64,000 bases of DNA from a virus: UHGV virus genome UHGV-1376660. One strand, given 5' to 3'. The notes under the pieces were generated by a model. That model had not been told where the DNA came from and searched no databases. It was given only the letters and a program-made list of their open reading frames with translations. Shown in pieces: positions 2,798 to 54,484 of this stretch (positions are counted from its first letter, which is position 1; every line of letters starts with the position of its first letter). Position numbers and translations under genes: made by a program.

Positions 2798-2831
2798 AAA
2801 CAACTTGTTTTCTTGTTGGTTTAATTATCGC
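2798..2831 (-). promoter_or_regulatory. class 1 conserved upstream element (AAACAANTTGTTTTCTTGTTGGTGTNATTATCGC)
   Basis: One of at least 15 near-identical copies, all oriented for minus-strand genes, 10-25 nt upstream of an RBS. Confidence 0.6.
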
Positions 2832-2960
2832 TACGCGCATAAGGCGTCCAAGCGTTCTGTTCCGGTAGCTGGTGGCCGGCAGGGAGTCGGAGGGTTATTA
2901 GGTAGCCTGGCGGTAAGAGGTGGGTGTTTTTAGCCTGCGGGAAACAGGATGGCCATTTAA

Positions 2961-2980
2961 GGCCACCAGCATGGGTGGCC
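2961..2980. terminator. hairpin GGCCACCAGCATGGGTGGCC
   Basis: Member of the GGCCAC..GTGGCC hairpin family seen throughout the window. Confidence 0.4.
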
Positions 2981-2988
2981 TCGTTCTC

Positions 2989-3270
2989 TTAGTGGAGCAG
3001 ACCGACGTCGATGGTATCACCTGAGCCATCCACGCGGATCATCAGCATGGCGAAGGCATTTAATGGGTAGCCTGCGTGCCAATCCGGGAAGCGGTCATCG
3101 CGCATGAAGTCGGCAATGTCATAAACGCTGTCCTCAAAGCGGAAGAAGCGGGCATCACATTGTTCGTCCTGTTCAATGTGATCCATTTCCAGCTGCTCTT
3201 CCGGCGACAGGTCGAGCCAGGATTCCAGCCATACGTTTTCAGCTTTAGGGGAGATAGTGAAATCGGTCAT
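2989..3270 (-). CDS. hypothetical early protein (about 94 aa)
   Basis: ATG at 3270 with a GGAGG RBS. The track ORF extends to 3387 but would run through the class 1 motif at 3290-3323. Confidence 0.5.
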   Translation of the reverse strand: MTDFTISPKAENVWLESWLDLSPEEQLEMDHIEQDEQCDARFFRFEDSVYDIADFMRDDRFPDWHAGYPLNAFAMLMIRVDGSGDTIDVGLLH

Positions 3271-3395
3271 GTGCATATCCTCCATGCGTAAACATCTTGT
3301 TTTCTTGTTGGTGTAATTATCGCAAGCGGATAAGGCAAAAAACATTTTGTTATCGGGAATAAGAAAATGGCGCGGGATACGCGCCATTGCAGTGA

Positions 3396-3788: not shown

Positions 3789-3915
3789 TTTTATCTCCCT
3801 ATAGTTGGTGGTTTTTATATTATTAAAATAGGTAGGCACTTACAATCCAAGCAAGCAAAAAGCCCCGAAGGATGGACGGGGCTGTCGTAGGGACGACTAA
3901 TCGCTTTTGCACATG

Positions 3916-4227
3916 TCAGGCTGTCGCCAGGAAAGAGGCACGCTGGATTTCTTGCTGGGCGACTTTGTTCGCCTCCAGTAACGCCTGTTCCAGCTCTCCT
4001 TCCGGCCAGATAATCTGTTTTGCCATCCACCCTTTCCCACTCTGGCGACGCACACTCATCACGTAACGCGCGCGGGAGCCATTGTCGAACGAGGCAATTG
4101 TCTCTTTAAACAGGCGAATGGCAGTACCGTTGGCGATGATATCGAGCAAAGTCAGTTGGCTCAGAACTGCTGGCTTCTCTTTACGTGGCTGTCCCGCGCT
4201 CAGTTTGGTAATCATCGCGTTTTTCAT
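3916..4227 (-). CDS. hypothetical protein (103 aa)
   Basis: ATG at 4227 with a GGAG RBS; class 1 motif at 4240-4273. Confidence 0.5.
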   Translation of the reverse strand: MKNAMITKLSAGQPRKEKPAVLSQLTLLDIIANGTAIRLFKETIASFDNGSRARYVMSVRRQSGKGWMAKQIIWPEGELEQALLEANKVAQQEIQRASFLATA

Positions 4228-4303
4228 AACTATCTCCGTAAACAACTTGTTTTCTTGTTGGTGTAAATAATACAGAGCTGAAAACGGGATAGAACCAATC
4301 TAT

Positions 4304-4932: not shown

Positions 4933-4942
4933 CTCTCCACCC

Positions 4943-5158
4943 TCACTTCGTTTCTGACGTTGTGCAGTTCCACGCGACGGACATTGGGTTGTCCTCGATA
5001 TGGAAATCAAACGTCCCTTCTCTGTATCCTTCAGAGATGAGCGTCGCCACGCGACCAGCTACATCCTGGGAACGGATAACGTCATCGAGGGAGATCTCAC
5101 ACTCGGGGGACTCTTCCTCGCCACAGAGGGTGATGCTGATATTCAGATGCTTGTACAT
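4943..5158 (-). CDS. hypothetical protein (about 71 aa)
   Basis: GGAGAA RBS before the ATG at 5158; class 1 motif at 5176-5209. Confidence 0.5.
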   Translation of the reverse strand: MYKHLNISITLCGEEESPECEISLDDVIRSQDVAGRVATLISEGYREGTFDFHIEDNPMSVAWNCTTSETK

Positions 5159-5300
5159 GTGTTTCTCCATTGTCTAAACATGTTGTTTTCTTGTTGGTGT
5201 TATTATCGCAATAAGAAAACGGGGAAAAAGAATTCCTTAAAGGCTGATGTGCTTGTGCCGATTTATTGCTATGTATGTATCTGGCTAACTCAGAGGGAAT

Positions 5301-5890: not shown

Positions 5891-5899
5891 GGATAGGGA

Positions 5900-6650
5900 C
5901 GTTACGGGGGATGAAAACGATGGCTTGAATTTCTACGGAGAAAGTAGCGATACCCCTCTTCCCATTCCCACTTATACCTCCAGTTAAATCTCTACGTATT
6001 TTCTCTCCTATGAACGTGCAAACCTTCCCCCTGATAACGCTCTATACGGCGAGTATTCCTTTGGGTGAAATGGGTGGTTTGTTCTCTCTACCGGCGTATG
6101 TGGTTTCGTTGTTCTTGAGGCGGTTTTTCTCTGTGTTTTCGTCTGGGTTGTTCTCGTCGTTTTGGTGAGTGTTCTTCTCCGTGTATGGAGTAATGGCAGG
6201 TGCGCTTTTCTCTTCGTTTACGTGAAATGATGGAAGTGTGGGTAATGGCAGTAGGGCGCTTTAGTTGTTCTCCGCATATGAAGTAATGGCGTTCCCTGCT
6301 ATTCAGGAATTTGCGCTCCCTTTCGGGGTAATGGTGGGTAAACGAGATTGCGACGGTTCCTGTTCTGGTCTGGGTTTGTCCGGGGTTTCGTTCTGGCTGT
6401 TCTTCTCCGTGTATTGGGTAATGGCGTGTAGGGGTTTGCGTGCGCGAGCTGCGTTCTCGGTTGCCTGGGGAGATTAGGTGGGTGGTCTGTAGCCTGGGGC
6501 AAAGAGGTGGGTCTTTTCGGTAGCCTGACAGGAAGAGGTGGGTGTTTCCGGGATTGTGGGTAATGGCGTCTCTGGTTTTCCTGTGGGTGTGGTTAACTTG
6601 TTTTCTTGTGCCTGAAAACAACTTGTTTAGATGTCCAATATAACGCAACG
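5900..6650. repeat. GT-rich (plus strand) degenerate direct-repeat region with no credible ORF
   Basis: GTAATGGC core at about 6190, 6242, 6283, 6328, 6419 and 6560. A 26 bp repeat TTCTTCTCCGTGTATGGAGTAATGGC lies at 6172 and 6401. TAGCCTG..AGAGGTGGGT repeats lie at 6490-6555. Class 1-like motifs at 6593-6630 and 6828-6853 point into the region on the minus strand. Confidence 0.5.
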
Positions 6651-6978
6651 GGAGCGCTTCTGAGCGTGTCTGTTTTTGGGTGGTATCACGAGTCGTTTTT
6701 GACGTTTTGGTCGCAGGGAGATGGATTCTGGTGCGCAGGATTTTGGGTATAAGAGATGGCGTGCGAAAACATCAACTTTTAGACCAAATCAGGGGAAAGC
6801 GTTGACTTTACGTTGATGTGTTATTTATTTGTTTTCTTATGGGTGTAATTGGCTTAAATACCTTGTCACGCCTGGGCTGGAGTGGGCTGGAGTGGTGGGG
6901 GAAGTGGCGATCAACGGACTCTTATAGAAATCCTCAATTTGTGACCGCCAACGTCAACGGATTGCGCCTAATCCCTAT

Positions 6979-8415: not shown

Positions 8416-8736
8416 TTACCAGTCCCAGGCTGGCAGGCCTTCCACCAGCTCGGCGTCGCAATCGAATTGCACCGCGTCAAAGCCAGCATCCAGTACCTTT
8501 TGAATGTTCTCGATGGTTTGCCATGTGACACCGTAATCACGCAGCTCTTCTTTCCAGTCGTTACCCCGCATACCTGCGCGGACAATCCATCCGTACTTCG
8601 TGCCGTGTACCCAATTCAGGCCGCGATCGGTTAGCGGGTCGAAACAGATATTAGGCAGACAGTCAGAGTCATGCTGTGTAATGTGGGCAGTGCTGATCAC
8701 CGCTGTCTTATACGATTCGGTTAGTTTCAGCATCAT
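8416..8736 (-). CDS. hypothetical protein (106 aa)
   Basis: ATG at 8736 overlaps the stop of the upstream gene as ATGA. Confidence 0.5.
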   Translation of the reverse strand: MMLKLTESYKTAVISTAHITQHDSDCLPNICFDPLTDRGLNWVHGTKYGWIVRAGMRGNDWKEELRDYGVTWQTIENIQKVLDAGFDAVQFDCDAELVEGLPAWDW

Positions 8737-8969
8737 GCCTTCTCCTTCGGAAACAGAGTGTCGGCCGTGTCAGAGATGACGTCCCAATTCACGCCGACGT
8801 TGGCGTCATGGCACTCTTTGATTTTTCGCATAACCTGAACGCACTGTTCGTCAGTCAGGTCTGGTCGCACTTCACCTACATCTTCCTTGTGCCACATCAC
8901 CATCAGCAGCGGCTCGTCTTCTGGGTAGTTCTCCAGCTTTTCGATGATGTCTTTTGCGGTTCCGAGCAT
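8733..8969 (-). CDS. hypothetical protein (78 aa)
   Basis: ATG at 8969 with an AAGGGG RBS; class 1 motif at 8982-9015. Confidence 0.5.
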   Translation of the reverse strand: MLGTAKDIIEKLENYPEDEPLLMVMWHKEDVGEVRPDLTDEQCVQVMRKIKECHDANVGVNWDVISDTADTLFPKEKA

Positions 8970-9054
8970 GATTAACCCCTTAAACAATTTGTTTTCTTGT
9001 TGGTGTTATTATCTCAAATAACAAAAGGCAGAAAACAAGATGTTTAAGGGATGA

Positions 9055-9321
9055 TTAGGTGAGTTTGAAGTCGTCTATGTCATCAACAAACTCCATATAC
9101 CTGGCTTCGACACTCGACAATCTGATCAGATACGCAAGCCCGTAACTAAGTGAAGTGGGTTGCTCCAGCACAAATTCGAACCCATCATCATGCGTTTTGC
9201 CAAGCCAGAATCCCCCACCGTATTCTTTTTCACGTTGGAAGAAAACGAACTGTCCTGGTATCAGGTGTTTGAGTGCTTCGCCTCTATAGACGATCTCATA
9301 TTTGGAATTCTTGCTGCCCAT
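9055..9321 (-). CDS. hypothetical protein (88 aa)
   Basis: ATG at 9321 preceded by a G-rich RBS. Confidence 0.45.
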   Translation of the reverse strand: MGSKNSKYEIVYRGEALKHLIPGQFVFFQREKEYGGGFWLGKTHDDGFEFVLEQPTSLSYGLAYLIRLSSVEARYMEFVDDIDDFKLT

Positions 9322-9509
9322 TTTCCCGCCCCACAATACTGTATAAATAAACAGTAGTGCTTATTGCAGTACCGGTCAACTTTGCGGGTTAAGGGAATAA
9401 CAAGGTGGTGAAAACAATTTGTTTCGGCACTTGAGATTTTGCAAATCGCACATACATGGAAAACGGCAATTTTTGAAACCTGATTTGACCCAAGTGAAAG
9501 GAGGAAACG

Positions 9510-9713
9510 ATGAAGACCTATGATCGCAACCGTAACGCTATCACTACCGGCAGCCGAGTGATGGTGGCAACGAATGGTGCAACGGGAGTCATCAAGGAAA
9601 TCAGCGGAGAAGGCAAATCAGAAGAACAATTACGCCGTTCTGACTGCGTGTCTATCGAAGGTGTGGAAGGTCTGTTCTGCCCAATGGATTTAGTTCGCCT
9701 GGGGTTCCATTAA
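9510..9713 (+). CDS. hypothetical protein (67 aa), plus strand
   Basis: Strong AAAGGAGGAAACG-ATG RBS; terminator hairpin at 9743-9764. Confidence 0.55.
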   Translation: MKTYDRNRNAITTGSRVMVATNGATGVIKEISGEGKSEEQLRRSDCVSIEGVEGLFCPMDLVRLGFH

Positions 9714-9742
9714 TTTCACCACCTATAAAACAAATTGTTTAA

Positions 9743-9764
9743 GGCCACAACCAGTGGCCTTTTT
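9743..9764. terminator. bidirectional terminator GGCCACAACCAGTGGCC + T5
   Basis: Hairpin between the convergent 9510..9713(+) and 9774..10061(-) genes. Confidence 0.6.
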
Positions 9765-10377: not shown

Positions 10378-10920
10378 TTACTTATTACCTAATTTGTCCA
10401 ACTCTTTCAGCCCATCACGTACCGCGTTCACGATACGCTCCAGGTATTGGTATTTGGGGTTTGGCACCGTTGGCCAACCGGCATACCACGGATCGTCGCC
10501 AAACAGACTCAACAGTTCGTTACCGACACCGAAACAGCAGCAACTTTCTTTTACGTCATCAGCGTTTTCTGCCTCGTCCCACATATTGCGGGCCTGTTCT
10601 GCGTCGATTTCTCTCCCCCTGCGCAACTTTATGATTTCGGATTTGACGAAAAGCAGGTTTGCGTCGTTGTCATCGTCGACCGTACTCAGCAGTTGAGGGT
10701 CGAGGCAACCAATCAAATAATCGTTGCTCACTCTCTTAATAAACGTCTGCACATCGTCACCGCCCATCGCAAACCAGGCAGCAGTCCACGCTTTCCCATA
10801 GCAGGTGATGGTGACTCTTCCCTTGCCCGGCTCGTAGTTTTCAATCATTACGCGTACCGGGTCGAGACGCTCCAGATGAGTCAGCACAAAGGAAAGAACA
10901 TCTAATTTTTCGACCTTCAT
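10378..10920 (-). CDS. hypothetical protein (180 aa)
   Basis: ATG at 10920 with a GGGAGG RBS; ATGA overlap with the upstream hydrolase gene. Confidence 0.5.
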   Translation of the reverse strand: MKVEKLDVLSFVLTHLERLDPVRVMIENYEPGKGRVTITCYGKAWTAAWFAMGGDDVQTFIKRVSNDYLIGCLDPQLLSTVDDDNDANLLFVKSEIIKLRRGREIDAEQARNMWDEAENADDVKESCCCFGVGNELLSLFGDDPWYAGWPTVPNPKYQYLERIVNAVRDGLKELDKLGNK

Positions 10921-11558
10921 GCGACCTCCCACGCGTTCCAGATCAGCGCTTTGTGTTTTTCATAACGTTTGGTGTGTACCGGTTGCAGACTGGCAATGCC
11001 TTTCGTCACCATAGCCCGGGCGTGTATCAGCAACGAATGCTCTATGCCTTTTTTCTCCAGGTACTCGACAACACCGGCATCGGCACCAATCTCCTTGCCG
11101 TCAAATAGTACGGCCAGCATCAGCTCTTTCTCTGCGAGGTAGATGGCTGAGAACTCAGGATCGCAACTCACGATAGAAGAGGTGTTGTCCAGCAGGTCAG
11201 CCAGCTTGATCATGCGCGTCTGCATGTCGAGGCTTTGCTCCAGCTCCCGGACGTTGATGATGAAGCGCTGTATTCGATTGCCGTCTTCTGGTCTGGCAAT
11301 GTTGGTCAGAGCCAGAACCATTTCGGCTACGTGCTCACCGAAGTGCTCACGAACCATCTCTATGGTGACATGGGTATCTTCGACCACATCATGCAGCAGC
11401 GCCGCGATCTGCATCTCCACGGTTCCACCATGCCAGGCAACAATCTCGCGAACAGCAACCGGGTGGTTGATGTAGTCTTCACCGGTATATTTTCTTTTCT
11501 GGCCAACGCCGCCATGAGCGCCAGCGGCAAACATATGGGCTTTGGAAATACGGGACAT
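10917..11558 (-). CDS. small alarmone hydrolase: HD-domain (p)ppGpp hydrolase, SpoT/Mesh1-like
   Basis: Motif YINHPVAVREIV...IAALLHDVVEDT...FGEHVAEMV matches the RelA/SpoT hydrolase HD domain. ATG at 11558 with a GGAG RBS. Confidence 0.7.
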   Translation of the reverse strand: MSRISKAHMFAAGAHGGVGQKRKYTGEDYINHPVAVREIVAWHGGTVEMQIAALLHDVVEDTHVTIEMVREHFGEHVAEMVLALTNIARPEDGNRIQRFIINVRELEQSLDMQTRMIKLADLLDNTSSIVSCDPEFSAIYLAEKELMLAVLFDGKEIGADAGVVEYLEKKGIEHSLLIHARAMVTKGIASLQPVHTKRYEKHKALIWNAWEVA

Positions 11559-11628
11559 TCTTAACTCCGTTGTTTTCTGGATGCAGTTATTTTCGCAGAT
11601 AAGAAAAGGTAGAAAACAAATTGTTAAA

Positions 11629-14735: not shown

Positions 14736-14747
14736 GATTGCACCATT

Positions 14748-14780
14748 AAACAAATTGTTTTCTTGTTGGTGTTATTTTCC
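14748..14780 (-). promoter_or_regulatory. class 1 element upstream of the 567 aa methyltransferase gene
   Basis: AAACAAATTGTTTTCTTGTTGGTGTTATTTTCC. Confidence 0.55.
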
Positions 14781-14876
14781 CAAAGTTGAAAAGGCGTAAA
14801 AGCAGCATTCACAGGCGTTGCAGCTGATTTAAGGCGTAAAAAGGGGGGCTTTCGCCCCCTGTCGGCAGGTGAGAAA

Positions 14877-15449
14877 TTAGTGGTGTACGTGCTGCGTTTT
14901 GTGCGGCTGTTTGTTCAGGTCGTGGCGATGGGTCAGCTCGCGCATCATGTCTTCAAGACGGCTCTTGGTGTCGTCAAGCTGGTCGGCCATTGCCCCCAGC
15001 AGCTGGCGAACGGCCATCGGATCGTCGCTGTTCAGCTCAGGCATTTTGAATCCAGCCTGGGAAGACATCAGTTTGAAGGCGGCCAGCAACATCGCCAGAG
15101 AAGACTTCAACCCGGCGATTTCACGATCTTTGCTGGCGTTGGTTTCATCTGCCTTGACTGAATCCGGTGAGCACTTCGGCTTGCTTACCATTTCCAGAGT
15201 TGCCTGAAGTTTGTCGGCGCGTTCTTTCTCTTCCAGATACGCTTCGCCGAAATGACGCGCCAGCATCACAATTTCAATCGGATCATCAATCATGCTTGAG
15301 AACTTGAGAACGCTGAAAAGGCGGTCGATAGGGGAGGCGTCGTCTTCGTGACCAACCACAAGACCCATGATCTCAACCAGTTCGGCCGCACCAACTTTTT
15401 TAATCACGCTTTCAACTTTGGCATTAGTTTTTTTGCATTTTTCGCACAT
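14877..15449 (-). CDS. hypothetical protein (190 aa)
   Basis: ATG at 15449 with an AAGGAAAA RBS; class 1 motif at 15471-15500. Confidence 0.5.
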   Translation of the reverse strand: MCEKCKKTNAKVESVIKKVGAAELVEIMGLVVGHEDDASPIDRLFSVLKFSSMIDDPIEIVMLARHFGEAYLEEKERADKLQATLEMVSKPKCSPDSVKADETNASKDREIAGLKSSLAMLLAAFKLMSSQAGFKMPELNSDDPMAVRQLLGAMADQLDDTKSRLEDMMRELTHRHDLNKQPHKTQHVHH

Positions 15450-15557
15450 GTGTTTTTTCCTTATGTTTTTAAACAAGTTGTTTTCTCGATGGCGTTATCG
15501 TGGCGTGACTGAAAAGGTGGGCAAACGCTACGTAAAGGCGGACGCCCACACTGACGG

Positions 15558-16373: not shown

Positions 16374-16481
16374 ACATTCTCTATTCAGTGTAAAAAGGGC
16401 CGTCAGTGGCCCTTGTTGTTAACTCTCATTGGTTGATTGGCTAAACAATTTGTTTTAACAGTGCCGAAAAGAGATTTGGCA

Positions 16482-18510: not shown

Positions 18511-18519
18511 ACTTACCGA

Positions 18520-39393: not shown

Positions 39394-39555
39394 TCCCGAT
39401 CTCCTTCTCATCCGTTGCCGAACAACTATGTGGCGTTGTCACTTTGTACTTCTACGGATGCTAATTCCGTATTAGTAACCAATTTGTTTTCTTGTTGGTG
39501 ATAATATGGAAATAAAAAAGGCGTCCAAGTGGACGCCGTATCTTTGAAAAGGCTG

Positions 39556-45757: not shown

Positions 45758-45761
45758 TGCT

Positions 45762-46205
45762 TTATGCGACTTTCTTACCAAAAATGTTGGATAGCGTGAC
45801 TCTGGTCTGGCGTTTCAGCCTGTACTGCCTCACATCGCCAATCTTGTTCACTTCCATAAACTCTTTGGCCACCTTCAGCACCAGCCGATTGCGGAACACT
45901 TTGAACGCCTCCAGCTGTTCCTCTGGGTTATCCGATTCGTAGATCTCCAGCAGATACTGGCACGCCTTCGGATCTTGCGTTTTAAGCGCCAGCGCTCTGG
46001 CACATTTACGCAAACGACTGACTTTGTCGGCACCATCCAGCCCGGCGAACGCCAGCGCCAGATCTAACGTGACCGGACAGTCGATGATTTCCCAGAACTG
46101 CGACCGCATGGTGGCCGCAACTGCTTTATCCTGAAAATCCGCTGGGATAGCCGCCAGCGCTTGTGCAATCTTCTGTGCCTCGTTCATGGTGTTCTCTTTA
46201 TTCAT
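45762..46205 (-). CDS. hypothetical protein (147 aa)
   Basis: Long ORF in the operon. Confidence 0.5.
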   Translation of the reverse strand: MNKENTMNEAQKIAQALAAIPADFQDKAVAATMRSQFWEIIDCPVTLDLALAFAGLDGADKVSRLRKCARALALKTQDPKACQYLLEIYESDNPEEQLEAFKVFRNRLVLKVAKEFMEVNKIGDVRQYRLKRQTRVTLSNIFGKKVA

Positions 46206-47371
46206 TTGCTAATAGTCTCCGCTACCTCTGCCAGAATTGCTTCCAGCTTTTCGCCTTCTTCTGGGCGAAAGTACAAAATGTTTGGGTTAAATCCGTAGAA
46301 AACGGTCACATCCAGCTCCGGCAGATACTCTTTGCGTCCAACCAGGTCGGATGGTTTGTTCTTGTTGTTGAAGAGTGACGTCGCCCGGCTGCCACACGTC
46401 AGCACATAGGTCGGACGCACCAGATTGACCTCTTCACGCATAAAGTCGGTGAACTGGCCGATCTCGTCTTTGGTGTAGTCCTTCTCTTTGTCCTTCACCT
46501 TTTTGCACACGCCGGTGACGTAGAGATCGCCCATGCGCAGATCGCCTGCAGTAAGCAACTTCGCTTTAAAGTCGTCGTAGCCGTTCTCCATGAAGTAACC
46601 GGTACGCCCATCATTGCCGTTCGCGTTGTCCAGAATGACCATGATTTTCGGCTTAATGCCAATGCTTGGGCGAATCAGGTCGTCTCCCAGACCCATTTCG
46701 GCCGCCATGCGAGTCATCAGTACATTCACCTCGGCAGAGCGCTTAGGGTTCATCTCGAACGGTCGAGAGGCTTTTACAGCGTCGATCACCAGATTGCCCA
46801 TCAGCTCTGCCTGGTCGCGCAGACGTTCCGGGTCTGTCGCTGGCAGACTGCCAGGCTCAATCGATGCGAACGCACCTACTTTTTGCAGTGACTCGCGTAC
46901 CCGGCTGTTACATGCACGCTTCTCGACCGATTCCTCGAATTGCGCCAGCGATTCGAATTTTCCGCCAACTTTCTCACGTGCTCTCATGATGGCCTGGCAT
47001 CCGTTCTCAGAGCAGCCTTTCACAGCAGAGAATGGCGCATACAGAACCTGGCTGCCGTCTTCTAGCGTGCGGATCTCAATTCGGTTAGATGACACGTTAA
47101 CGTCTGGTGGCAATATGCGAATACCATAGGTCAGCGCATCCTTAACCAGCCCTTGGTGCTTATCCTCGCCCAGAATGGTGAGAGCTGCAGCGAAGAATTC
47201 AGCAGGGTAGTGCGTCTTTAGCCACATAGACTGATAGCTGATCAGCGAGTAGGCAACGGAGTGTGATTTGTTGAAGGCATACGCGCCGGATTTCTCAAAC
47301 ATATTCCAGATTTCTTCGGCTCGTTCGTGCGTCAGGCCATTACTCTCTTCAACAACACCGGTAATTTTCAT
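46202..47371 (-). CDS. dnaE: DNA polymerase III alpha subunit, C-terminal fragment (from the FNKSHS region to the OB fold)
   Basis: ERAEEIWNMFEKSGAYAFNKSHSVAYSLISYQSMWLKTHYP matches the DnaE fingers region. The ATG overlaps the HNH gene stop as ATGA. Confidence 0.8.
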   Translation of the reverse strand: MKITGVVEESNGLTHERAEEIWNMFEKSGAYAFNKSHSVAYSLISYQSMWLKTHYPAEFFAAALTILGEDKHQGLVKDALTYGIRILPPDVNVSSNRIEIRTLEDGSQVLYAPFSAVKGCSENGCQAIMRAREKVGGKFESLAQFEESVEKRACNSRVRESLQKVGAFASIEPGSLPATDPERLRDQAELMGNLVIDAVKASRPFEMNPKRSAEVNVLMTRMAAEMGLGDDLIRPSIGIKPKIMVILDNANGNDGRTGYFMENGYDDFKAKLLTAGDLRMGDLYVTGVCKKVKDKEKDYTKDEIGQFTDFMREEVNLVRPTYVLTCGSRATSLFNNKNKPSDLVGRKEYLPELDVTVFYGFNPNILYFRPEEGEKLEAILAEVAETISK

Positions 47372-48102
47372 GCAGTCACCTCATCAATCTTCATGAACTC
47401 ATACCCATTGGACACCAGCCAGTCCCGCTGGCGCTCCCAGCTCCATACCTCTTCACGCATTTCGCTATGCAGACGAATGTGAGCGTCTTCTGGAAGTGCT
47501 ACCAGATTCCCAGGGGCGTTATCTACCGTGTCGCGGTTAAGGTGGTGGACATGTTCATCGTCACGTAGCTCCCGACCGAGATGTTCTTTCGCTATCAACC
47601 GATGAACGTATTCGTATTGCGAAACGCCATTGTTACCAACCAGCTGCATCATGTAGCCGTTGGTTTTTATGATGACGCCACCTTTGTAGTTGTTCGCTTC
47701 TTCTCCGGTCTTTCCGCGTTTGGCAGCCGCCAGCTTTTCCTTCGTCTCTAGGCGGATTGTTCTGCCGGTCAGCTTTTTCGAAACGGTGGCCACTCGCTCA
47801 TCGGTATCAGCACGCAGCCCTGCATTCCACGAGGTTTTCCCATACATAGGGTTGCCAGCGCCAGCCCGGGCTTCGGAGAGTCGCTTTATGCGTTCGTCAT
47901 TATTTTTGTTTTTGCCACGATTCCAGGCTGGGGTAGCGGAGATCCGCGCGTTTCCGCGCCTGATCCCCCATTTGGCTAATAAGCGATCGATATTTGCCTT
48001 GCTGCAACCAGCTTCGGCGGCAATGTCTTCTTTTCTCATCAGGTCAACCATGTAACGCTGGCGTAACCATTCTTCTGTGATTTTGTACTTCGTACCCGGC
48101 AT
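47368..48102 (-). CDS. free-standing HNH homing endonuclease with NUMOD-like repeats
   Basis: EYVHRLIAKEHLGR...HVHHLNRDTVDNAPGNL (HNH) and GNPMYGKTSWNAG (NUMOD3-like). Class 1 motif at 48117-48148 upstream. Confidence 0.75.
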   Translation of the reverse strand: MPGTKYKITEEWLRQRYMVDLMRKEDIAAEAGCSKANIDRLLAKWGIRRGNARISATPAWNRGKNKNNDERIKRLSEARAGAGNPMYGKTSWNAGLRADTDERVATVSKKLTGRTIRLETKEKLAAAKRGKTGEEANNYKGGVIIKTNGYMMQLVGNNGVSQYEYVHRLIAKEHLGRELRDDEHVHHLNRDTVDNAPGNLVALPEDAHIRLHSEMREEVWSWERQRDWLVSNGYEFMKIDEVTA

Positions 48103-48116
48103 TTCAAAAACTCACT

Positions 48117-48148
48117 AAACAAATTGTTTTCTTATCTTATAAATTAAC
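48117..48148 (-). promoter_or_regulatory. class 1 element upstream of the HNH endonuclease gene inside dnaE
   Basis: AAACAAATTGTTTTCTTATCTTATAAATTAAC. Confidence 0.5.
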
Positions 48149-48150
48149 TC

Positions 48151-50514
48151 TCAAATATCGAAGCTCGTTATGTCGGCATTTATAGCCATTGCTTCGGCAT
48201 AAGTGCGACGCTCACCATCAGCGCAAAGTAGGCGTGCTGCTTTATGAATTTTCCTCGTAGAACCGTCATCCAGTGACACTGTCACCCAGCCTTCCTCCGC
48301 TCGCTTAATGAAGTTGCCGCCAATGGATTTCATTTTCTCCATATCTTTTTTCCCGATCGCTTTCCTGACCGAGTCTGCTTCCGCCATAGAGAACCCCGCC
48401 AAGATTCGCGTAGCAGCCATGATCTGTTCCTGATAAATCAGAACGCCGTTTGTGTCGCGAGAGATGTCGTCCAGCATTGGGTGTAAGGAATGTGGAGCCA
48501 TGAAGCCTTTGGCCACGGAGACATAGTCGTCCAACATGCCGGATTGAATCGGGCCTGGTCGGAAGAGTGCGGTCGTGGCGACAACGGTTTTGAAGCTCAT
48601 TGGCTCAATACCACCGCCAATATCTTTAAGCAGCTTGCGCATAGGGCCGGACTCCAGCTGGAATACGCCCTGCGTGTACCCTGCAGCGAACCCATCCAGA
48701 ACCTTGCGATCGTCCAGTGGGATAGCATCGAGATTGATGTCTTCCTCGGTACTCTCTTTGATGTAGCGTTTCGCGCTATCCAGCAGATCGAGCGTTGCCA
48801 GACCGAGAACGTCCAGCTTAATCAGCCCCATCGCCTCGCAGTAACGTTTATCGAACGCAATACAGCGAGCGTTGCCACGCAGCTCGACGGGAGTGCGCTC
48901 TACCAGTGGAACGCCAGCGACGATCATCCCCGCTGCGTGACGGCCAAAACCACGCATCAGGCTTTGCAGCTTACATGCCGCTTTGAACGCTTCCGGGTTT
49001 TTCGTGGCGTATTTGTCTAGGCTGGCCAGTTGTTCGCGCAGCTCTTCCAGCGGCAGGCTATCGTCCTCCAGATTCTTGAACTCTTTGGATACCGCCATAT
49101 CCGCAGCGTCTACACCGTAAATACGCGCAGTGTCACGCAGCGCAGAAGCCGCGCCCAGATAGGTGAAGTTCGGAATACCGGCAACGTAATCTTCTCCATA
49201 ACGTTCATTCAGATACTCGATCACCTCATGACGACGTGCCTGGCTGAAGTCCAGATCCGCATCCGGCAAGTCGAGACGTTCAGGGTTAATGAAACGCTCA
49301 AACAGAAGACCGTGACGGATAGGATCGACGTTGGTTATGCCGATGCACCACGCCACCAGAGAACCGGCAGAGGAACCACGACCTGGCCCGACAGGAATGC
49401 CAGTTTCACGGCTGTGATTCATCAGGTCGCGCACCATCAGGAAGTAACCGCAGAAGCCCAGGCGGGTCAGCGTGTCCATTTCGTACTTCAGACGATCAAC
49501 ATACACGCGGTGCTCAGAAGCCGGTGGTGTGTAACCAAACTCTTTGGTAGTAAGACGCTTGCGCAGCCCCGCGACAGCCAGCTTCATCAGCGTTGCAGGC
49601 TCGTCGTCTGCCATCTTGGGCAGTGCTGGTGGCAATTCATGCCAGCGCCATGTGCAGGCTTCAATAATGGTGTCCTGCGTTGTTGAGGCCATTGCAGCTG
49701 TTACAGGTACATCCATGCGAACGGAGAAGGCTTTCAGCGCTTCAAGGAGATGGCGGCGACCATTAACGGCGTTATCTCGCTGGTGGGGAATACGCAGACG
49801 ATGCGGCTGGTCGATTTTGATGTTGTTCGTAACCATGTGCGCAATGTCTTTAATGTCAGCGTCGTCGACCGCTTCGTAATAAGCGGGATAGAACGCCACT
49901 GGCTCTATTTTCAGTGCGCTCGCCACTTTCATCGCCCGGACGTTAATCTGGTCGTAGAATGGGGTAGGGTGCGGATAAACCACGCTGTAGAAGTTATCGC
50001 GTCCTCCAACTGTCACCAGCGTCCCGATAATCTTTGCGAAGTCCCGGCGCTGGAATACACTGCCAATGTCGGACGTCAGCAGGATGATGTTGCCTTTGGC
50101 ATATGCGGCCGCCAGCTGGTCAAGTGCCAGACGCGGGACAAAGTAGAATTGCTCGCGCTTGTTGGCTAAGGTCATCAGTTCGCACACGTCGCGATAACCT
50201 TGCTCATTCTTTATCAGTGCCGTGAAGCAGTAGCTGCGATCACGCACCAATGATTCCATACATCCTCCTGACTCTTTCGCCAGGCGGGCGCGGTGCTCGT
50301 ATGTCGGATCGTCGACCACATTCAGCTTAACACCACAAATAACCGCCATGTCGTCGCCAGCGGCACGCTGCAGGGGGATCACACTGGCAATGTTCATGCT
50401 GTCAGCGGAAATGACAGCGGTGTAGCCAGCGTCTCTCGCGATTTTGACCGCGTTTTCTGCTTTTAGAGCCGACTCTCCCAGGGAGAAGTCAGTTCTGACC
50501 ATCAGAGCCTTCAT
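48151..50514 (-). CDS. dnaE: DNA polymerase III alpha subunit, N-terminal fragment (PHP domain, palm, thumb, part of fingers)
   Basis: PHP motifs (MVRTDFSLGES), GIPVGPGRGSSAGSLVAWCIGIT and DLPDADLDF catalytic residues. The 787 aa here plus 389 aa in the C-terminal fragment add up to about the length of a full DnaE. Confidence 0.85.
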   Translation of the reverse strand: MKALMVRTDFSLGESALKAENAVKIARDAGYTAVISADSMNIASVIPLQRAAGDDMAVICGVKLNVVDDPTYEHRARLAKESGGCMESLVRDRSYCFTALIKNEQGYRDVCELMTLANKREQFYFVPRLALDQLAAAYAKGNIILLTSDIGSVFQRRDFAKIIGTLVTVGGRDNFYSVVYPHPTPFYDQINVRAMKVASALKIEPVAFYPAYYEAVDDADIKDIAHMVTNNIKIDQPHRLRIPHQRDNAVNGRRHLLEALKAFSVRMDVPVTAAMASTTQDTIIEACTWRWHELPPALPKMADDEPATLMKLAVAGLRKRLTTKEFGYTPPASEHRVYVDRLKYEMDTLTRLGFCGYFLMVRDLMNHSRETGIPVGPGRGSSAGSLVAWCIGITNVDPIRHGLLFERFINPERLDLPDADLDFSQARRHEVIEYLNERYGEDYVAGIPNFTYLGAASALRDTARIYGVDAADMAVSKEFKNLEDDSLPLEELREQLASLDKYATKNPEAFKAACKLQSLMRGFGRHAAGMIVAGVPLVERTPVELRGNARCIAFDKRYCEAMGLIKLDVLGLATLDLLDSAKRYIKESTEEDINLDAIPLDDRKVLDGFAAGYTQGVFQLESGPMRKLLKDIGGGIEPMSFKTVVATTALFRPGPIQSGMLDDYVSVAKGFMAPHSLHPMLDDISRDTNGVLIYQEQIMAATRILAGFSMAEADSVRKAIGKKDMEKMKSIGGNFIKRAEEGWVTVSLDDGSTRKIHKAARLLCADGERRTYAEAMAINADITSFDI

Positions 50515-50692: not shown

Positions 50693-50694
50693 GA

Positions 50695-51930
50695 TTAACC
50701 GAAGATCTTCTGAACCACTTCACGCGCCGCCTGTGCAGACGTGGATGGAAGTTTATTGATAAACGACTTTTCGATGCCGGCAGAGAAATCACCGCGCATC
50801 ATTCCGATTTTTGCGGACAGCAGCAGCTCGCGAGGGCCGATTGGCTGGCTGATCAGATGCTGTTCATAACCTTCACGGACAAGGTTCGCGAACTTCACCA
50901 TCTTCTCGGCGTATTCGCGGATGACGCCAGCCTCAGCCAGCATGTTGACTTCAGCCTTAGTGCTCATGTACTTCACGTTCGAAACAATGCCGAAGCGCGA
51001 GAAGTTCGCCGCGTTCTGGATGTTCGTACCTTGATAGAGACCCGTTTCGTCGCCAGAGCCGTTGGTGTTGCCAGTGCCAATGAAGGCAAAGCGTTTATGC
51101 GGAGTGATACGGCGCCAGTCCGGAGTTGCCTCTTTGATGATCAGCGGCTCTCCTTCAAGAACTGGCTGGTACACACCCAGAATCTGCGGGAACGCGAAGT
51201 CATATTCATCAGCGAGGTACACCCAGCCATTTTTCATCGCCAGCGCCAGCAAACCAGGCTCGAAGTAGGTGGAGCCATCGCGAGCGAGGATCTGGCCTGT
51301 AACGTGTGCTTCTTCCATAGACGCCGTATGCTGGGCGCGGATCAGTGGTCGATTCAGCAGGGCGCATAGCTGTGTAGGAAGAGAAGATTTACCGGTTCCT
51401 GCATGACCCCAGAGATAGCCTGGTATTCCGATTTCCAGCATCATGAAGATGTCTTTAATCAGGTCGAAGTCGCCATACACATAGTTCTTCTTCGCTTCCG
51501 GTACGAACTCCGGATATGGCGTGTTGACGTTGACTGTCACCTGTAGTGGCTTTCCGCGTGGCGTTCCCAGCTCTTTGATCGTTACGCCAAGCAGCTCGTG
51601 CGCGGCCACCAGTTCGGTCTTGTATTCGACCGTTCCTGCGTAGCCCGGATGTGCGCTAATCTCCGCTACTTTTCCTTCGCCTGAATGCTTTTCGGCACGC
51701 TTCTCATTGAGTTTGGCCAGTGCCGTGCGAGAGATCGTTGGTTCATCCGGAAACGCAGAGGTGTACATTTTCACCACTTCGTCCACGTCCAGACCCTTCG
51801 CGGACTCAGGAATGTTTTCGCAACGGCCCATAGAGATATGGGATTTCAGGTAATGAAAGGATTTGCCACACCACTTGCAGACGATGGCTTCCGGCAAATG
51901 TTCTTCTTGCTGTAGTGCAGTAGCGGTCAT
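50695..51930 (-). CDS. cobS: CobS-like AAA+ ATPase (MoxR/cobaltochelatase-subunit family)
   Basis: Walker A GHAGTGKSSL, Walker B ADEYDF, size about 410 aa. Confidence 0.65.
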   Translation of the reverse strand: MTATALQQEEHLPEAIVCKWCGKSFHYLKSHISMGRCENIPESAKGLDVDEVVKMYTSAFPDEPTISRTALAKLNEKRAEKHSGEGKVAEISAHPGYAGTVEYKTELVAAHELLGVTIKELGTPRGKPLQVTVNVNTPYPEFVPEAKKNYVYGDFDLIKDIFMMLEIGIPGYLWGHAGTGKSSLPTQLCALLNRPLIRAQHTASMEEAHVTGQILARDGSTYFEPGLLALAMKNGWVYLADEYDFAFPQILGVYQPVLEGEPLIIKEATPDWRRITPHKRFAFIGTGNTNGSGDETGLYQGTNIQNAANFSRFGIVSNVKYMSTKAEVNMLAEAGVIREYAEKMVKFANLVREGYEQHLISQPIGPRELLLSAKIGMMRGDFSAGIEKSFINKLPSTSAQAAREVVQKIFG

Positions 51931-52026
51931 GTGTTTTTCCTTACTGTTTGTCGTTCGTGGGGTATATCTTATATAAATATATTAGGCTGTATAGTAAGTG
52001 ATTACTTATTTTCACAAGTGAAGCTA

Positions 52027-54375
52027 TTACCCAAGAATGATACGAGATAACTCAGTGACGACTGACGGCCCTAACTCTTCTACGCTGTTCACCAGTGCGT
52101 AATTTTTGTAGTAACGTCGTGGTGCGTCGGTCAGAACGCCGATAGCCATCAAATCGATGTCACTCAACGTCTCAATTTCTTTGGTGACGGTTCGCAAATG
52201 CTGATGGAACCCATCGCCTGCAGCACATGGCGCCCCGTCGCTCATAACCAGCATGATCTTCTTGTCCTCCATACGCCCTGCAAACAGAGTCGCCAGCTGC
52301 GCGACGCTCTCACCATCGACGTTATTGAGCAGGGGGAACGTCTCACACACGCAGCCCATGCGGGCGCGGATCTCTGGCGAGTTAGCTTTCTCATTCCAGT
52401 TTTTGATAATGGGCAGCATTAGTGCCTCGAAGCGAGTAAACCCGCGCTTCGACATGGTTTCATAATCCGGACTACCAAACGTGGTAAAGCCGGTGATGAT
52501 GTTAGGCACATTGATACGATCCAGAGCATCCGCAATGGTGTAGGCGCTGGCGAGTGCCAGTTGAATCTTCCTGCCGCTCATTGAGCCGGACAAGTCGATA
52601 ACCTGCTGGACGCATGCGTTCACTGCTCTGTGGTCTTCCTTCTTGCGGAACACGCGGTCGTCGTTCATTGCCAGACGATACAGGTTCGCGCCATGTATCC
52701 GCCCACGTCTCTGGCCTGGGATAAACTGAACTCGGTTGCGGCTGGCGATAGCTCGCTCCAGGTCTTTGGCCAGAGTCGAAGAAACGCCTGCTGACAGATG
52801 TTTTTCGATTTTCAGTTCAAATAGCTTTCTACCTTCCGGAACCATGCGGTAGCGATCGACCGGTGAGTGCATTGGGATTGCGCCGAACGTCTTTCTGGTG
52901 CGCTTTACATGCTCTTCAGCCTCATCAATCAACCCGATAAAGTCGTATGAACGATCGTATGGGCGATACTCAGAAAGTGAGGCGCTCATAAGCTCTTTGA
53001 TGATGGTGGCCGACAGTGCGTCTTCTGTCATTTCGCCTGTTCCGTCTTCCATCTCGTCGAGCGCCTTGAGTGCGTCCTCCAGAGTCATTTCATCCGGAGC
53101 AGGAACAAAGCCTGACTCACTGTCTTCAGGCGCTTCCGCAGCACCCTCATTTTCTTTGCCTTCGCCGTCTGTGTGTTCGGCGGCGTCATCTTCCTCTTCG
53201 CCTTCTCCTTCGGATTCATCATGACCGGCATCGGAGTTTTCGCCGTCATCACTATCCCCGTCGCCAGCTGCGCCAGAGCCATAACCATCGGAGTCATCGG
53301 CGTCTTCGCGAATGCCATCACCAGGCGTTGGAGAGCCAGTGTCATCACTATCACCTGATTCCATGCCGTCATCATCGGATTCTGGGGTGTCTCCTGATTC
53401 CTCTTCGCCTGCTTCTGTATATTTACTTTCTGTATCACTAATTTCTTTATCCCCTGTAGGTAAGTCCTTATCTACTAATTCAGGCAAATCAGAATCCCCA
53501 GACTCTTCCTCTTCTGAGGCGTCATCTTCTTGCTCTTCCTTATCGTCGTCTTCGCCTTTGGTACGCTTTGGCGCTGATTCACTATGAGTCGGTTCGTCAC
53601 CGGCTTCTGGGGTTTCCTCTGACTCGTCCTCACTCTTCGACGGCTTCCTAGCAGACGATTTAATCTCTGGTAATTTGCCCTCTGGCTTGTCTTTCATATC
53701 CTGCATGATTTGGGCGATAGCAGCTGCGACCTTCACGCAGTCCTCTGTGTTCGACATATTGCGAACGGCCACGTCAATGCCATGCTCTTTGAGCAAGGCT
53801 ACAGGCTTCTCGATGAGGTGCCAGTGATCTTCCATAAAGTCGATGAAAGGGCTTTGGCCATCCCAGGCGCGGACGACAGGGCAAAGGAAGAATTTCAGGA
53901 ACAATTCACGCTGGTTGCCGTGGCAGATTGAAACCGCCTCTGACACTTTGCCCTTGAAGTATTTGTCGATCACCAGGTTCTGCGTGGCCAGCAAATTGCG
54001 ACGGGTTCCGTTGAATACCTGTCCCATTCTGCGTTCAATAAAAACGTCTTCCAGCGCGTTCCAAAGCCCGGTAGACGGAGCCTTTCCTCTCTCGCGCATT
54101 TTCATTGCGACTTTCGGATCAGTAAAGAGGATATGGGCTACCTCATGGTCGAGAAAACCACGTACTGCGTTCATGAGGGTTGGTGATGCATCGTCAGGTA
54201 TAGATGGGATATTTACCAGCACTGGTTCGCCGCGCCGGTTGTAGCGGACATATGCTTCATTGCCTCGCTCTGCAACAGGTATCTGTTTGCCTGATAGCAT
54301 CGCTACAACTCGTTTTACGCAGTCGCGGAAGTCCTGTACCTCTTTCAGCACAGATCTGGTCATGGCTTTGGACAT
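52027..54375 (-). CDS. cobT: CobT-like protein with a long D/E/S-rich linker and a C-terminal von Willebrand A domain
   Basis: vWA MIDAS motif (DLSGSMSG) in the C-terminal 300 aa. ATG at 54375 with an AAGGAAAT RBS; class 1 motif at 54395-54430. Confidence 0.6.
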   Translation of the reverse strand: MSKAMTRSVLKEVQDFRDCVKRVVAMLSGKQIPVAERGNEAYVRYNRRGEPVLVNIPSIPDDASPTLMNAVRGFLDHEVAHILFTDPKVAMKMRERGKAPSTGLWNALEDVFIERRMGQVFNGTRRNLLATQNLVIDKYFKGKVSEAVSICHGNQRELFLKFFLCPVVRAWDGQSPFIDFMEDHWHLIEKPVALLKEHGIDVAVRNMSNTEDCVKVAAAIAQIMQDMKDKPEGKLPEIKSSARKPSKSEDESEETPEAGDEPTHSESAPKRTKGEDDDKEEQEDDASEEEESGDSDLPELVDKDLPTGDKEISDTESKYTEAGEEESGDTPESDDDGMESGDSDDTGSPTPGDGIREDADDSDGYGSGAAGDGDSDDGENSDAGHDESEGEGEEEDDAAEHTDGEGKENEGAAEAPEDSESGFVPAPDEMTLEDALKALDEMEDGTGEMTEDALSATIIKELMSASLSEYRPYDRSYDFIGLIDEAEEHVKRTRKTFGAIPMHSPVDRYRMVPEGRKLFELKIEKHLSAGVSSTLAKDLERAIASRNRVQFIPGQRRGRIHGANLYRLAMNDDRVFRKKEDHRAVNACVQQVIDLSGSMSGRKIQLALASAYTIADALDRINVPNIITGFTTFGSPDYETMSKRGFTRFEALMLPIIKNWNEKANSPEIRARMGCVCETFPLLNNVDGESVAQLATLFAGRMEDKKIMLVMSDGAPCAAGDGFHQHLRTVTKEIETLSDIDLMAIGVLTDAPRRYYKNYALVNSVEELGPSVVTELSRIILG

Positions 54376-54484
54376 GAGAATTTCCTTGTTATTAAAACAA
54401 TTTGTTTTCTGGTTTGCGTAATTTATCACTGTACGAACAGGCGACTAAGCTGTTCGTACAGGTTTCTATCGGCAGGAATGTGTT

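Follow-up and report, generated by a model that had tools for sequence, protein, structure and literature searches.

A stereotyped promoter-palindrome unit repeated throughout SSU5/pHCM2-type phage-plasmids, a possible operator of an element-encoded repressor

The 64-kb stretch of DNA analyzed here (the window) is an SSU5/pHCM2-like phage-plasmid, and it carries units that couple a stereotyped promoter to a 13-bp palindrome, repeated about 20 times in it and in all its relatives. The best explanation, to which we give about an even chance, is that each unit is a sigma-70 extended -10 promoter fused to the DNA operator of a global repressor that the element itself would encode. We found no published description of the motif, and no Rfam family was found.

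An exhaustive search of the window used a sequence profile derived from 22 copies, with filters off, and returned 11 full units scoring 38-59 bits, every one on the minus strand. The tally is completed by two half copies with the promoter and left half-site only (11570-11612 and 6827-6858) and six palindrome-only copies (at 6616, 9033, 9412, 9728, 11614, and 16443), against a chance expectation of 0; beyond these three groups, the profile search of the window gave no match at E<0.1. The 27-mer consensus had five matches in the window at three or fewer mismatches versus none in 100 shuffles, and the palindrome AAACAA-N-TTGTTT occupies 17 places at no more than one mismatch. The first-pass annotation had described a repeated conserved element, and each copy that it listed is present within a few bases of its place, if not exactly there; about 13 are promoter-like units upstream from minus-strand genes, as it had proposed for the whole set, and the rest are not such units. 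The features are as follows.

2-436, plus strand: FljA-family gene, 5' end cut by the window; candidate trans factor.
2779-2846, minus strand: full unit (50.4 bits), AGC-GATAAT, 11 nt, GAAAACAAGTTGTTTA; palindrome 2798-2810; SD AAGGA, ATG at 2783; gene 2301-2783 (160 aa; no Pfam family for the product).
3268-3336, minus strand: full unit (52.9 bits), TGC-GATAAT; palindrome 3290-3302; gene 2989-3270 (93 aa); terminator hairpin upstream at 3388-3366.
4220-4289, minus strand: full unit (54.9 bits), TG-TATTAT register; palindrome 4240-4252; gene 3916-4227 (103 aa).
5158-5226, minus strand: full unit (52.7 bits), TGC-GATAAT; palindrome 5176-5188; gene 4943-5158 (71 aa).
6593-6629, no strand assigned: tandem pair 25 bp apart, full palindrome 6616-6628 plus degenerate copy at about 6593-6605, bordering an iteron-rich noncoding region.
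6827-6858, minus strand: half copy (ACACCCATAAGAAAACAA; 20.2 bits), right half-site absent.
8967-9046, minus strand: dual-site promoter, TGA-GATAAT; full unit 8967-9032 (59.1 bits) with palindrome 8982-8994 (predicted ~+13); inverted palindrome 9033-9045 exactly 51 bp upstream (~-38); gene 8733-8969 (78 aa).
9410-9425, plus strand: palindrome only, between divergent genes, ~90 nt upstream from ydfZ (9510-9713, plus strand) and ~33 nt upstream from the -35 of a LexA-box promoter serving minus-strand gene 9055-9321.
9726-9741, plus strand: palindrome only, located between ydfZ and the minus-strand gene upstream; abuts a bidirectional terminator hairpin (9741-9761).
11570-11627, minus strand: promoter with left half-site only (CCAGAAAACAA; 21.4 bits), TGC-GAAAAT; full inverted palindrome 11614-11626 at a predicted ~-38, straight after a GGCCAC..GTGGCC terminator hairpin; gene 10917-11558 (HD phosphohydrolase per the SSU5 annotation).
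14727-14798, minus strand: full unit (54.0 bits), TGG-GAAAAT; palindrome 14748-14760; gene 13050-14735 (561 aa; DUF4942/DNA methyltransferase in relatives' annotation).
15453-15519, minus strand: full unit (48.9 bits), weaker -10 (CACGAT); palindrome 15471-15483; gene 14877-15449 (190 aa).
16442-16457, minus strand: palindrome only, 76 nt upstream from the Rha-family (wHTH) regulator/antirepressor gene 15558-16373.
26685-26754, minus strand: variant unit (39.6 bits) before nrdB (25530-26672), palindrome TAACAATTTGTTT at 26705-26717, poor -10.
39462-39523, minus strand: full unit (42.6 bits) straight after a terminator (GGCGTCCACTTGGACGCC TTTTTT); palindrome 39477-39489; next gene NinX-like (39022-39411).
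48099-48163, minus strand: unit (38.3 bits) before the HNH/NUMOD3 homing-endonuclease gene (47368-48102); palindrome 48117-48129.
54374-54443, minus strand: unit (40.2 bits) before the cobT-like gene (52027-54375), TGA-TAAATT; palindrome 54395-54407; hairpin terminator upstream.

Every copy whose context was inspected is intergenic except the 48117 unit, which begins within the last codons of the upstream ORF, and many units are insulated cassettes of terminator, promoter, and gene. The isolated copies previously placed before nrdB, the HNH gene, and the cobT-like gene are indeed there, whereas the one at 39477, assigned to the front of the SPFH operon, lies behind the SPFH gene and its terminator. 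Nor do all copies share one orientation, as had been stated: judged by the asymmetric flanks (GAAAACAA...TTGTTTA), 12 run with the minus-strand genes and five are inverted (6614, 9031, 9410, 9726, and 11612).

On the coding strand, the order is an extended -10 (TGnGATAAT or TGnTATTAT), 11 nt, AAG-AAAACAA-N-TTGTTTA, and then usually an SD and ATG; no -35 was seen at the units by eye, and a promoter search gave no -35/-10 pair there. Counting from the G of GAAAACAA, all 58 instances have T at -12. Of 52 distinct instances, 35 have A-11 and T-7 of the -10 hexamer in one of two registers, and 24 of these also have TGn. The counts support a -10 element at a fixed distance; a -10 box had been suspected within the repeat. 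If transcription starts ~7 nt past this putative -10, the center of the palindrome would lie near +13 and its span would be roughly +7 to +19. The inverted repeat itself is 6-N-6, not the 7-3-7 first described, and has an AAG-AAAACAA extension on the promoter side; the reported direct repeat ACAAG..ACAAG exists when the free central base is G and is otherwise absent. An RBS and start codon had been placed 8 to 25 nt downstream; measured from the palindrome center, the start codon is 19-39 nt away in 10 units and 62-97 nt away in others.

Comparison of 72 distinct instances from diverse SSU5-like contigs showed that half-site positions are 88 to 100% conserved around a random central base. All 22 departures from half-site complementarity are single-sided, with no compensatory pairs between half-sites among the 72; the leader RNAs are no more stably folded than shuffled sequences, and a hairpin formed by the palindrome has only -0.7 kcal/mol. 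It is therefore the sequence, not a hairpin, that is read. The motif occurs at orthologous places in SSU5 (20 sites) and Cyrano (15 sites), as well as in a Nissabacter-type relative, Y. pestis pMT1, and a 69%-identical relative, with diverged flanking bases. While the inter-element block drifts in diverged relatives (AAGACGCATAA, AAGCCACATAA), the palindrome is near-invariant, which indicates selection on the palindrome itself; its conservation extends far beyond that of the flanks and is independent of promoter context, since palindrome-only and inverted copies exist. The 51-bp dual-site spacing was found again in loci of at least eight relatives, and 25-bp tandems were found at three loci, including the distant relative L009 and the region upstream from terS in SSU5. 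In a scan of IMG/VR, each multicopy locus inspected further was SSU5-like.

The -10 at a fixed distance and the independently conserved palindrome fit a promoter plus operator for a phage-encoded regulator, and that part of the first-pass proposal is upheld. Its temporal gene set is not: sites in the complete genomes of SSU5 and Cyrano lie ahead of terS (late operon), parA, dnaB, cobT-like, nrdB, and methyltransferase genes and many small genes, so the set looks element-wide rather than one temporal class. Each copy could be a self-contained transcription cassette of the phage-plasmid, with a host sigma-70 type promoter (TGn plus GATAAT or TATTAT, without -35) and, exactly 11 bp downstream, a putative DNA operator whose individual bases would most likely be recognized by a symmetric dimer of an element-encoded protein. 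Bound there, such a protein may exclude RNA polymerase or block promoter escape, and the second copies 51 bp upstream (~-38), the 25-bp tandems, and the post-terminator copies could be auxiliary operators or roadblocks. A plain dimer operator leaves two features unexplained, the left-half-only units and the asymmetric left extension, in which A(-1), G(0), and A(+1) are 94 to 99% conserved without a mirror partner.

RNA-Seq of a Cyrano lysogen (PMC9928086 S1 Table) placed 10 of 12 genes directly behind sites at background (5.7-12.9 versus a median of 9.8), the exceptions being parA (50) and dnaB (21). This is compatible with repression, yet it does not discriminate, as most genes in the lysogen are at background with or without a preceding site; parA, which is expressed despite a perfect palindrome in front, counts against a repressor.

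Several known systems resemble this arrangement. In P1, also a plasmid prophage, every lytic or accessory transcription unit is controlled through its own copy of a single C1 operator, with roughly 15 to 20 sites over ~100 kb that overlap promoters and are occasionally paired; however, P1 operators are 17-bp and asymmetric (ATTGCTCTAATAAATTT), in contrast to a 6-N-6 palindrome fixed at the predicted +13 position of a stereotyped extended -10 promoter. The P1 operator is absent from the window even at three mismatches, and no C1 homolog was noticed. The 13-bp stoperators of mycobacteriophage L5 gp71 likewise occupy tens of intergenic sites, for the most part in the direction of transcription and in some cases away from promoters, where elongation could be blocked, but they are asymmetric and strictly orientation-dependent, whereas here the core is symmetric, 5 of 17 sites are inverted, and most are locked to a -10. 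Plasmid-wide short repeats or 6-N-6 palindromes at many promoters, including that of the par operon itself, are also seen for omega of pSM19035 and KorB of RK2 (13-bp palindromic OB, 12 sites), although the motif differs in sequence from OB (TTTAGCSGCTAAA) and the omega heptads. The protein that binds there is the centromere-binding protein of the partition system; the parallel here is that no dyad other than the motif was seen in the SSU5 promoter region of a small (type Ib-like) ParA gene, that the motif is kept there in the distant relative L039, and that a gene for a small ParG-like protein comes directly after parA.

This ParG-like protein ranks first among the candidate binders, ahead of the 92-aa SSU5_123/CYRAN_117 and then some other protein. 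It has a strand-helix-helix sequence pattern, its candidate strand IKSRTMS is invariant in SSU5, Cyrano, and the 50%-identical L039 copy, and its gene is expressed in the Cyrano lysogen (89); the two ParB_N proteins of the element are at background there. Neither the ParG-like nor the 92-aa protein matches a known DNA-binding family (no match in Pfam or in PDB sequence searches).

An unlikely alternative is that the motif is read in the mRNA 5' leader by the FljA-like protein (window 2-436), which was modeled as two tandem Sm/Hfq-like barrels and is a candidate for acting on RNA, so that ~20 transcripts would be translationally repressed and destabilized. In Salmonella phase variation, FljA reportedly binds to the 5'UTR of fliC and prevents translation. 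A member of the family (PF03614, E 3e-81) is encoded beside the motif-rich region and in all relatives inspected (window, SSU5, Cyrano with 79% identity, pMT1, L009, and L140), and 86 further clusters lie mostly on ~105- to 115-kb contigs. The conserved sequence, A-rich and then U-rich, would fall at ~+3 to +20 of predicted leaders, its end 3 to 20 nt ahead of the SD in 10 units, and the directional left extension (AAGAAAACAA, with ARN-type triplets) and left-half-only units suit single-strand reading. However, the spacing to the -10 is fixed and that to the start codon varies (19-97 nt), whereas the reverse would be expected of an RNA site that acts by occluding the SD. A single-stranded RNA that does not fold offers no explanation for exact dyad symmetry, and the ~-38 copies would be outside the transcript to be regulated. 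The Salmonella fliC 5'UTR shares only CAAGTTGT with the motif, and its best motif-PWM score is attained in 27% of shuffles; the motif stays the same in relatives whose FljA-like protein has just 53 to 57% identity, and that protein could instead be a moron aimed at host flagellin.

We consider it rather improbable that no dedicated trans factor is involved, that the block combines an efficient promoter of extended -10 type with an A-rich, unstructured leader acting as translation enhancer, and that it was spread by duplication or recombination with its gene cassettes, the palindrome having no partner. Insulated cassettes move easily, unstructured leaders favor translation, and the ACACCAACAA block between -10 and palindrome, the same in several window copies, suggests recent common ancestry; the near-invariant palindrome beside a drifting block speaks against this, palindrome-only copies, inverted copies, and the fixed 25- and 51-bp spacings would lack a role, and silence in the lysogen is unexpected for unregulated strong promoters. 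Binding by a host nucleoid or global regulator that couples element expression to host physiology seems very improbable, even for the nearest match, IHF. The lambda H' core TATCAATTTGTTG and AAACAATTTGTTT are alike at 10 of 13 positions, and by direct comparison with the published consensus, the IHF core CAA-N4-TT is on both strands of the motif; a Rha-family gene follows one site, and in other phages rha phenotypes require IHF. The motif nevertheless differs from WATCAANNNNTTR at T3 and R13, both conserved positions there, is constrained at bases where IHF has no preference, and, with perfect two-fold symmetry and near-invariance over ~70 instances, is unlike degenerate asymmetric IHF sites; restriction of the inspected multicopy IMG/VR loci to SSU5-like elements also argues against a host factor.

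For the preferred promoter-operator interpretation, ~20 sites ahead of late, replication, partition, nucleotide-metabolism, and many small accessory genes mean that one protein could silence most of the element. Canonical promoters carry perfect LexA boxes at two places (9337-9356 and 56473-56492), which suggests SOS-induced products as the trigger for derepression. The repeated cassette most likely lets one element-encoded protein switch many genes off jointly, and in the plasmid-prophage state such a protein would keep most of the element silent and then release it all at once.

Pattern and profile searches of the window showed that the repeat described in the first-pass annotation is real: its 27-mer consensus has five matches at up to three mismatches, versus none in shuffled sequence, and every position at which a copy had been placed falls on a full unit (promoter plus palindrome), a half copy (promoter plus left half-site only), or a palindrome-only site. 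The core is the 13-bp palindrome AAACAA-N-TTGTTT, which occurs in 17 places in the window at up to one mismatch. A profile made from 22 full copies and run on the window with filters off recovered 11 full units, 2 units consisting of the promoter and the left half, and 6 palindrome-only sites; beyond these 19 sites, the window had no profile match at an E value below 0.1. The claim of at least 15 copies upstream from minus-strand genes holds for the approximately 13 promoter-like units and not for the rest, and the single orientation that had been proposed does not extend to five sites, which are inverted as judged by their asymmetric flanks. The inverted repeat had been laid out differently; its actual form is 6-N-6. 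The direct ACAAG repeat is found only where the free central base is G, the second ACAAG being missing otherwise.

The window is 93 to 97% identical to Salmonella phage SSU5 (megablast) and reaches 98% identity with pHCM2-type plasmids of Salmonella, Citrobacter, and Enterobacter, and approximately 780 plasmid records match the region, including records from Klebsiella and Escherichia and the Yersinia plasmid pMT1. We therefore identify it as 64 kb of an SSU5-type phage-plasmid, running in reverse to the SSU5 record (window coordinate approximately 97368 minus the SSU5 coordinate). These phage-plasmids are widespread in the Enterobacteriaceae, among them S. Typhi pHCM2, Y. pestis pMT1, and elements of Klebsiella and E. 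coli, some carrying resistance genes. Our literature search found nothing published on the choice between plasmid life and lysis in SSU5-type elements, and neither the motif nor SSU5-type regulation turned up in full-text searches. We collected 72 distinct instances of the motif from profile matches to diverse SSU5-like contigs, covering 37 loci; loci from IMG/VR and from Cyrano, the SSU5-type element of E. coli LF82, were compared through DNA alignments and model-search alignments. An exact 16-mer scan of IMG/VR returned mostly single-copy matches among the matches listed, and every multicopy locus among them that was examined further was SSU5-like; no unrelated phage with the motif appeared among the listed matches, and hence there was no pointer to a shared regulator. 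On this evidence the motif is genuine, strongly nonrandom, and conserved, with the sequence features of a promoter-operator cassette whose mechanism we infer.

On the coding strand, the first part of a unit is often the end of an upstream terminator, GCCTTTTC; TGn comes next and then GATAAT, or TATTAT one base further upstream. Eleven nucleotides, which read ACACCAACAA in many window copies, separate the -10 element from the block G-AAAACAA-N-TTGTTT-A, and 10 units have an SD and ATG 19 to 39 nt past the palindrome center. The T at -12 from the G of GAAAACAA, which matches -7 of the -10 hexamer, is present in 58/58 instances. A-11 and T-7 of the hexamer lie in one of two fixed registers in 35 of 52 distinct full-length instances (including 22 GATAAT and 6 TATTAT hexamers), and 24 of these 35 also have TGn, with TG at -15/-14; the remaining 17 are for the most part upstream sites in inverted orientation or promoter variants (those of parA, dnaB, and nrdB). 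The window copies lack a TTGACA-like hexamer 16 to 18 bp upstream, i.e., the -35 element is absent. The units have the -10 hexamer and the TGn of a sigma-70 extended -10 promoter, and we predict that they act as such. If transcription starts approximately 7 nt past the hexamer, the palindrome would span about +7 to +19. The unit offers a compact, probably tightly repressible promoter cassette. The suggestion of a promoter or operator for a phage-encoded regulator is supported in its anatomy, by the fixed spacing to the -10 element and by conservation of both halves of the palindrome.

Several sites are combined into larger arrangements. In the higher-order ARRANGEMENTS, a second and inverted copy stands exactly 51 bp upstream of the one in the promoter at 8967-9032, at about -38, and this spacing of paired copies recurs in loci from at least eight relatives; at the 11570 promoter, a full copy lies at about -38 and the downstream position has just a half-site. 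Copies form tandem pairs 25 bp apart at 6593/6616, upstream from terS (the head of the late, structural operon) in both SSU5 and pMT1, and in further relatives. Two motif copies come directly after GGCCAC..GTGGCC terminator hairpins. At 8958-9051, an inverted repeat of approximately 21 nt is made up of the dual-site promoter's two inverted palindromes and their CCCTT/AAGGG flanks; in RNA that reads through from the upstream gene, the arms of this repeat could pair and mask the downstream gene's SD, and transcripts from the internal promoter would be without its 5' arm. Directly downstream of the tandem pair, with the same layout in the distant relative L009, lies a stretch of approximately 600 bp (6050-6650) that is apparently noncoding, C/A rich on the minus strand, and dense in direct repeats: the core GGGTAATGGC occurs 6 to 7 times, a 28-nt repeat occurs three times, and three tandem repeats of approximately 30 nt occupy 6457-6547. 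This stretch resembles an iteron array and is thus a candidate origin or protein-loading site.

Conservation of the palindrome could reflect a structured RNA, such as a riboswitch, a leader, or a nut-like hairpin, or a site recognized in DNA. Across the 72 instances, the AAACAA and TTGTTT half-sites are 88 to 100% conserved per position around a random central base, and symmetry is lost in the flanks from +/-7 outward, a conserved A-G-A extending the left side without a mirror image on the right. All departures from complementarity are single-sided (C/A five times, A/A 13 times, A/G five times, and others), and the 72 instances contain no compensatory double change between the half-sites. The predicted leaders fold no better than shuffled sequences (MFE z-scores of -1.5 to +1.4), the palindrome alone as a hairpin reaches -0.7 kcal/mol, and Rfam gave no match for the motif. 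For lack of an Rfam match, of a stable fold, and of covariation, we rejected a structured RNA element. What is conserved in the palindrome is therefore the base sequence of both halves, a hallmark of a symmetric DNA-binding protein. With its two-fold symmetry, and with base identity rather than pairing conserved, the palindrome has the character of an operator, for which we can name candidate binders. The IHF site WATCAANNNNTTR does not fit: the motif's invariant bases are A for T at position 3 and T for R at position 13, and its base frequencies also fix positions that IHF leaves free.

A serious rival is that the motif is read at the RNA level by a FljA-like protein. FljA represses fliC through binding to the fliC mRNA leader, and an RNA-binding protein of this family is encoded by the same element as the motif: the window begins inside the gene (2-436, plus strand), the SSU5 orthologue matches PF03614 (E value of 3e-81), and the gene is kept in all relatives examined. 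However, the spacing of the motif is fixed to the -10 element and not to the SD, and the copies at -38 fall outside the regulated transcript. Salmonella and Citrobacter fliC leaders were compared with the motif; the best PWM score in the Salmonella leader was reached by 27% of shuffles, which is not significant, and only CAAGTTGT is common to the two. We therefore rejected the idea that the motif is the same operator as that in fliC, the only known FljA target. To our knowledge, the FljA family is known only from flagellar phase variation, and our findings place it inside a phage regulatory neighborhood.

Our first candidate for a DNA binder is a ParG-like protein encoded outside the window, after a small ParA (221 amino acids [aa]; PF09140, PF13614, and PF01656). 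The protein has 96 to 119 aa, a basic tail, and a strand-helix-helix sequence pattern (IKSRTMSLEDEYF...FTRSDVIRAAI); this segment is invariant in SSU5, Cyrano, and a 50%-identical copy in the distant relative L039, and Pfam and PDB searches gave no family or structure match. Small ParAs depend on a partner protein for autoregulation, as with omega and ParG, and the parA promoter region contains no dyad other than the motif. The ParG-like gene is also expressed in the lysogen (89; PMC9928086 S1 Table). On these grounds we put it first, by inference. We think it unlikely that the palindrome is the site of this ribbon-helix-helix-type partition protein and that the protein is also the master silencer of approximately 20 lytic and accessory promoters; a second layer is possible, with this conserved block being perhaps also recognized in the mRNA leader, by the FljA-like tandem-Sm protein. 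Another candidate is a 92-aa protein (SSU5_123/CYRAN_117) encoded just upstream from the FljA-like gene, with an N-terminal pattern resembling that of the ParG-like protein and a lysogen value of 114 (PMC9928086 S1 Table); its model gave no specific fold match. Searches with the small candidate proteins against Pfam, PHROGs, and PDB returned nothing useful. The motif is the same where the FljA-like protein is 53 to 57% identical and the 92-aa protein 33% identical, which gives no information on the binder. The Rha-family wHTH protein (15558-16373) was rejected because it is not universal, Cyrano having other genes there. We also set aside the Xre-type HTH "repressor" (54962-55348), which SSU5 lacks and whose gene has upstream from it a different dyad, GTAAGTGCTTAC, and no motif.

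The complete SSU5 genome has 20 motif sites, which lie as follows.

Tandem pair before terS, head of the structural operon
Before parA, dnaB, and the cobT-like, NinX-like, and nrdB genes
Before the Rha/Ant gene
Before the DUF4942 methyltransferase and HD hydrolase genes
Before about ten small genes of unknown function

Cyrano (approximately 80% identity) has 15 sites at corresponding places, and no change in the motif is seen in a Nissabacter-type relative, an E. kobei contig, pMT1, and a 69%-identical contig. Sites precede genes of all kinds in SSU5 and Cyrano, which argues against the dedicated temporal gene set proposed earlier and for an element-wide set. The copy at 39477, previously placed in front of the SPFH operon, follows the SPFH gene and precedes the NinX-like gene. 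In RNA-Seq data for the LF82 lysogen, 10 of the 12 Cyrano genes directly behind sites are at background (5.7 to 12.9; median, 9.8), parA is at 50, and dnaB is at 21 (PMC9928086 S1 Table). Background expression agrees with repression or inactivity in the prophage state; it is weak evidence, since most Cyrano genes are silent anyway. Several small genes that follow a motif copy are miscalled in public annotation (window 2989-3387; 45805 and 47903 in L006): SSU5_116, a "putative repressor-like protein," is on the strand opposite an open reading frame (ORF) with motif, SD, and ATG, and for CYRAN_105 and CYRAN_110 the start given in the annotation falls inside the palindrome or upstream from it. 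The DNA polymerase III alpha-like gene (46202-50514, minus strand) appears split into ORFs of 787 and 389 aa (a single 1,172-aa ORF in SSU5), between which lies a free-standing HNH/NUMOD3 homing endonuclease gene (47368-48102) with its own copy of the motif promoter.

We also found two perfect LexA boxes (TACTGT-N8-ACAGTA) in the window, versus 0.07 expected at up to one mismatch; both overlap canonical -35/-10 promoters.

9337-9356, LexA box driving an 88-aa unknown gene (9055-9321), adjoining the dual-site promoter
56473-56492, LexA box driving a tyrosine recombinase/integrase gene (55340-56446)

Cyrano is inducible by ciprofloxacin (PMC9928086). The boxes are likely SOS inputs to induction, and the SOS-controlled small genes behind them would be the trigger of derepression; an antirepressor made under SOS and acting on the palindrome binder is a plausible candidate. 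The island of integrase, HTH repressor, and small gene (54485-56446) is shared with Cyrano (CYRAN_44-46) and absent from phage SSU5, which may bear on the use of SSU5 in biocontrol as a lytic phage. Dyads of a second class, GTAAGTNCTTAC, are present in four places (0.16 expected).

54918-54929, second dyad
18505-18516, second dyad
51994-52005, second dyad
3832-3843, second dyad

One copy lies within the 264-bp gap between the Xre-type HTH "repressor" gene (54962-55348, plus strand) and a divergent 70-aa gene (54485-54697, minus strand), and a similar dyad lies between the helicase and parB-like operons of SSU5 (49795-49815 in record L008). This class is probably a separate operator set.

The motif set resembles, in kind, the dispersed C1 operators of P1, the stoperators of L5, and the plasmid global regulons of omega and KorB; its sequence and promoter-locked geometry are its own. 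The 17-bp asymmetric P1 C1 operator, ATTGCTCTAATAAATTT, has no match in the window at up to three mismatches. Our combined results suggest that, in this clinically widespread family of phage-plasmids, the cassette marks out a regulon spanning the whole element, with one 13-bp site at approximately 20 promoters providing a direct experimental handle and a map of that regulon. Should the ParG-like protein prove to be the binder, a segregation protein would also silence phage promoters, thereby tying plasmid maintenance to lysogeny.
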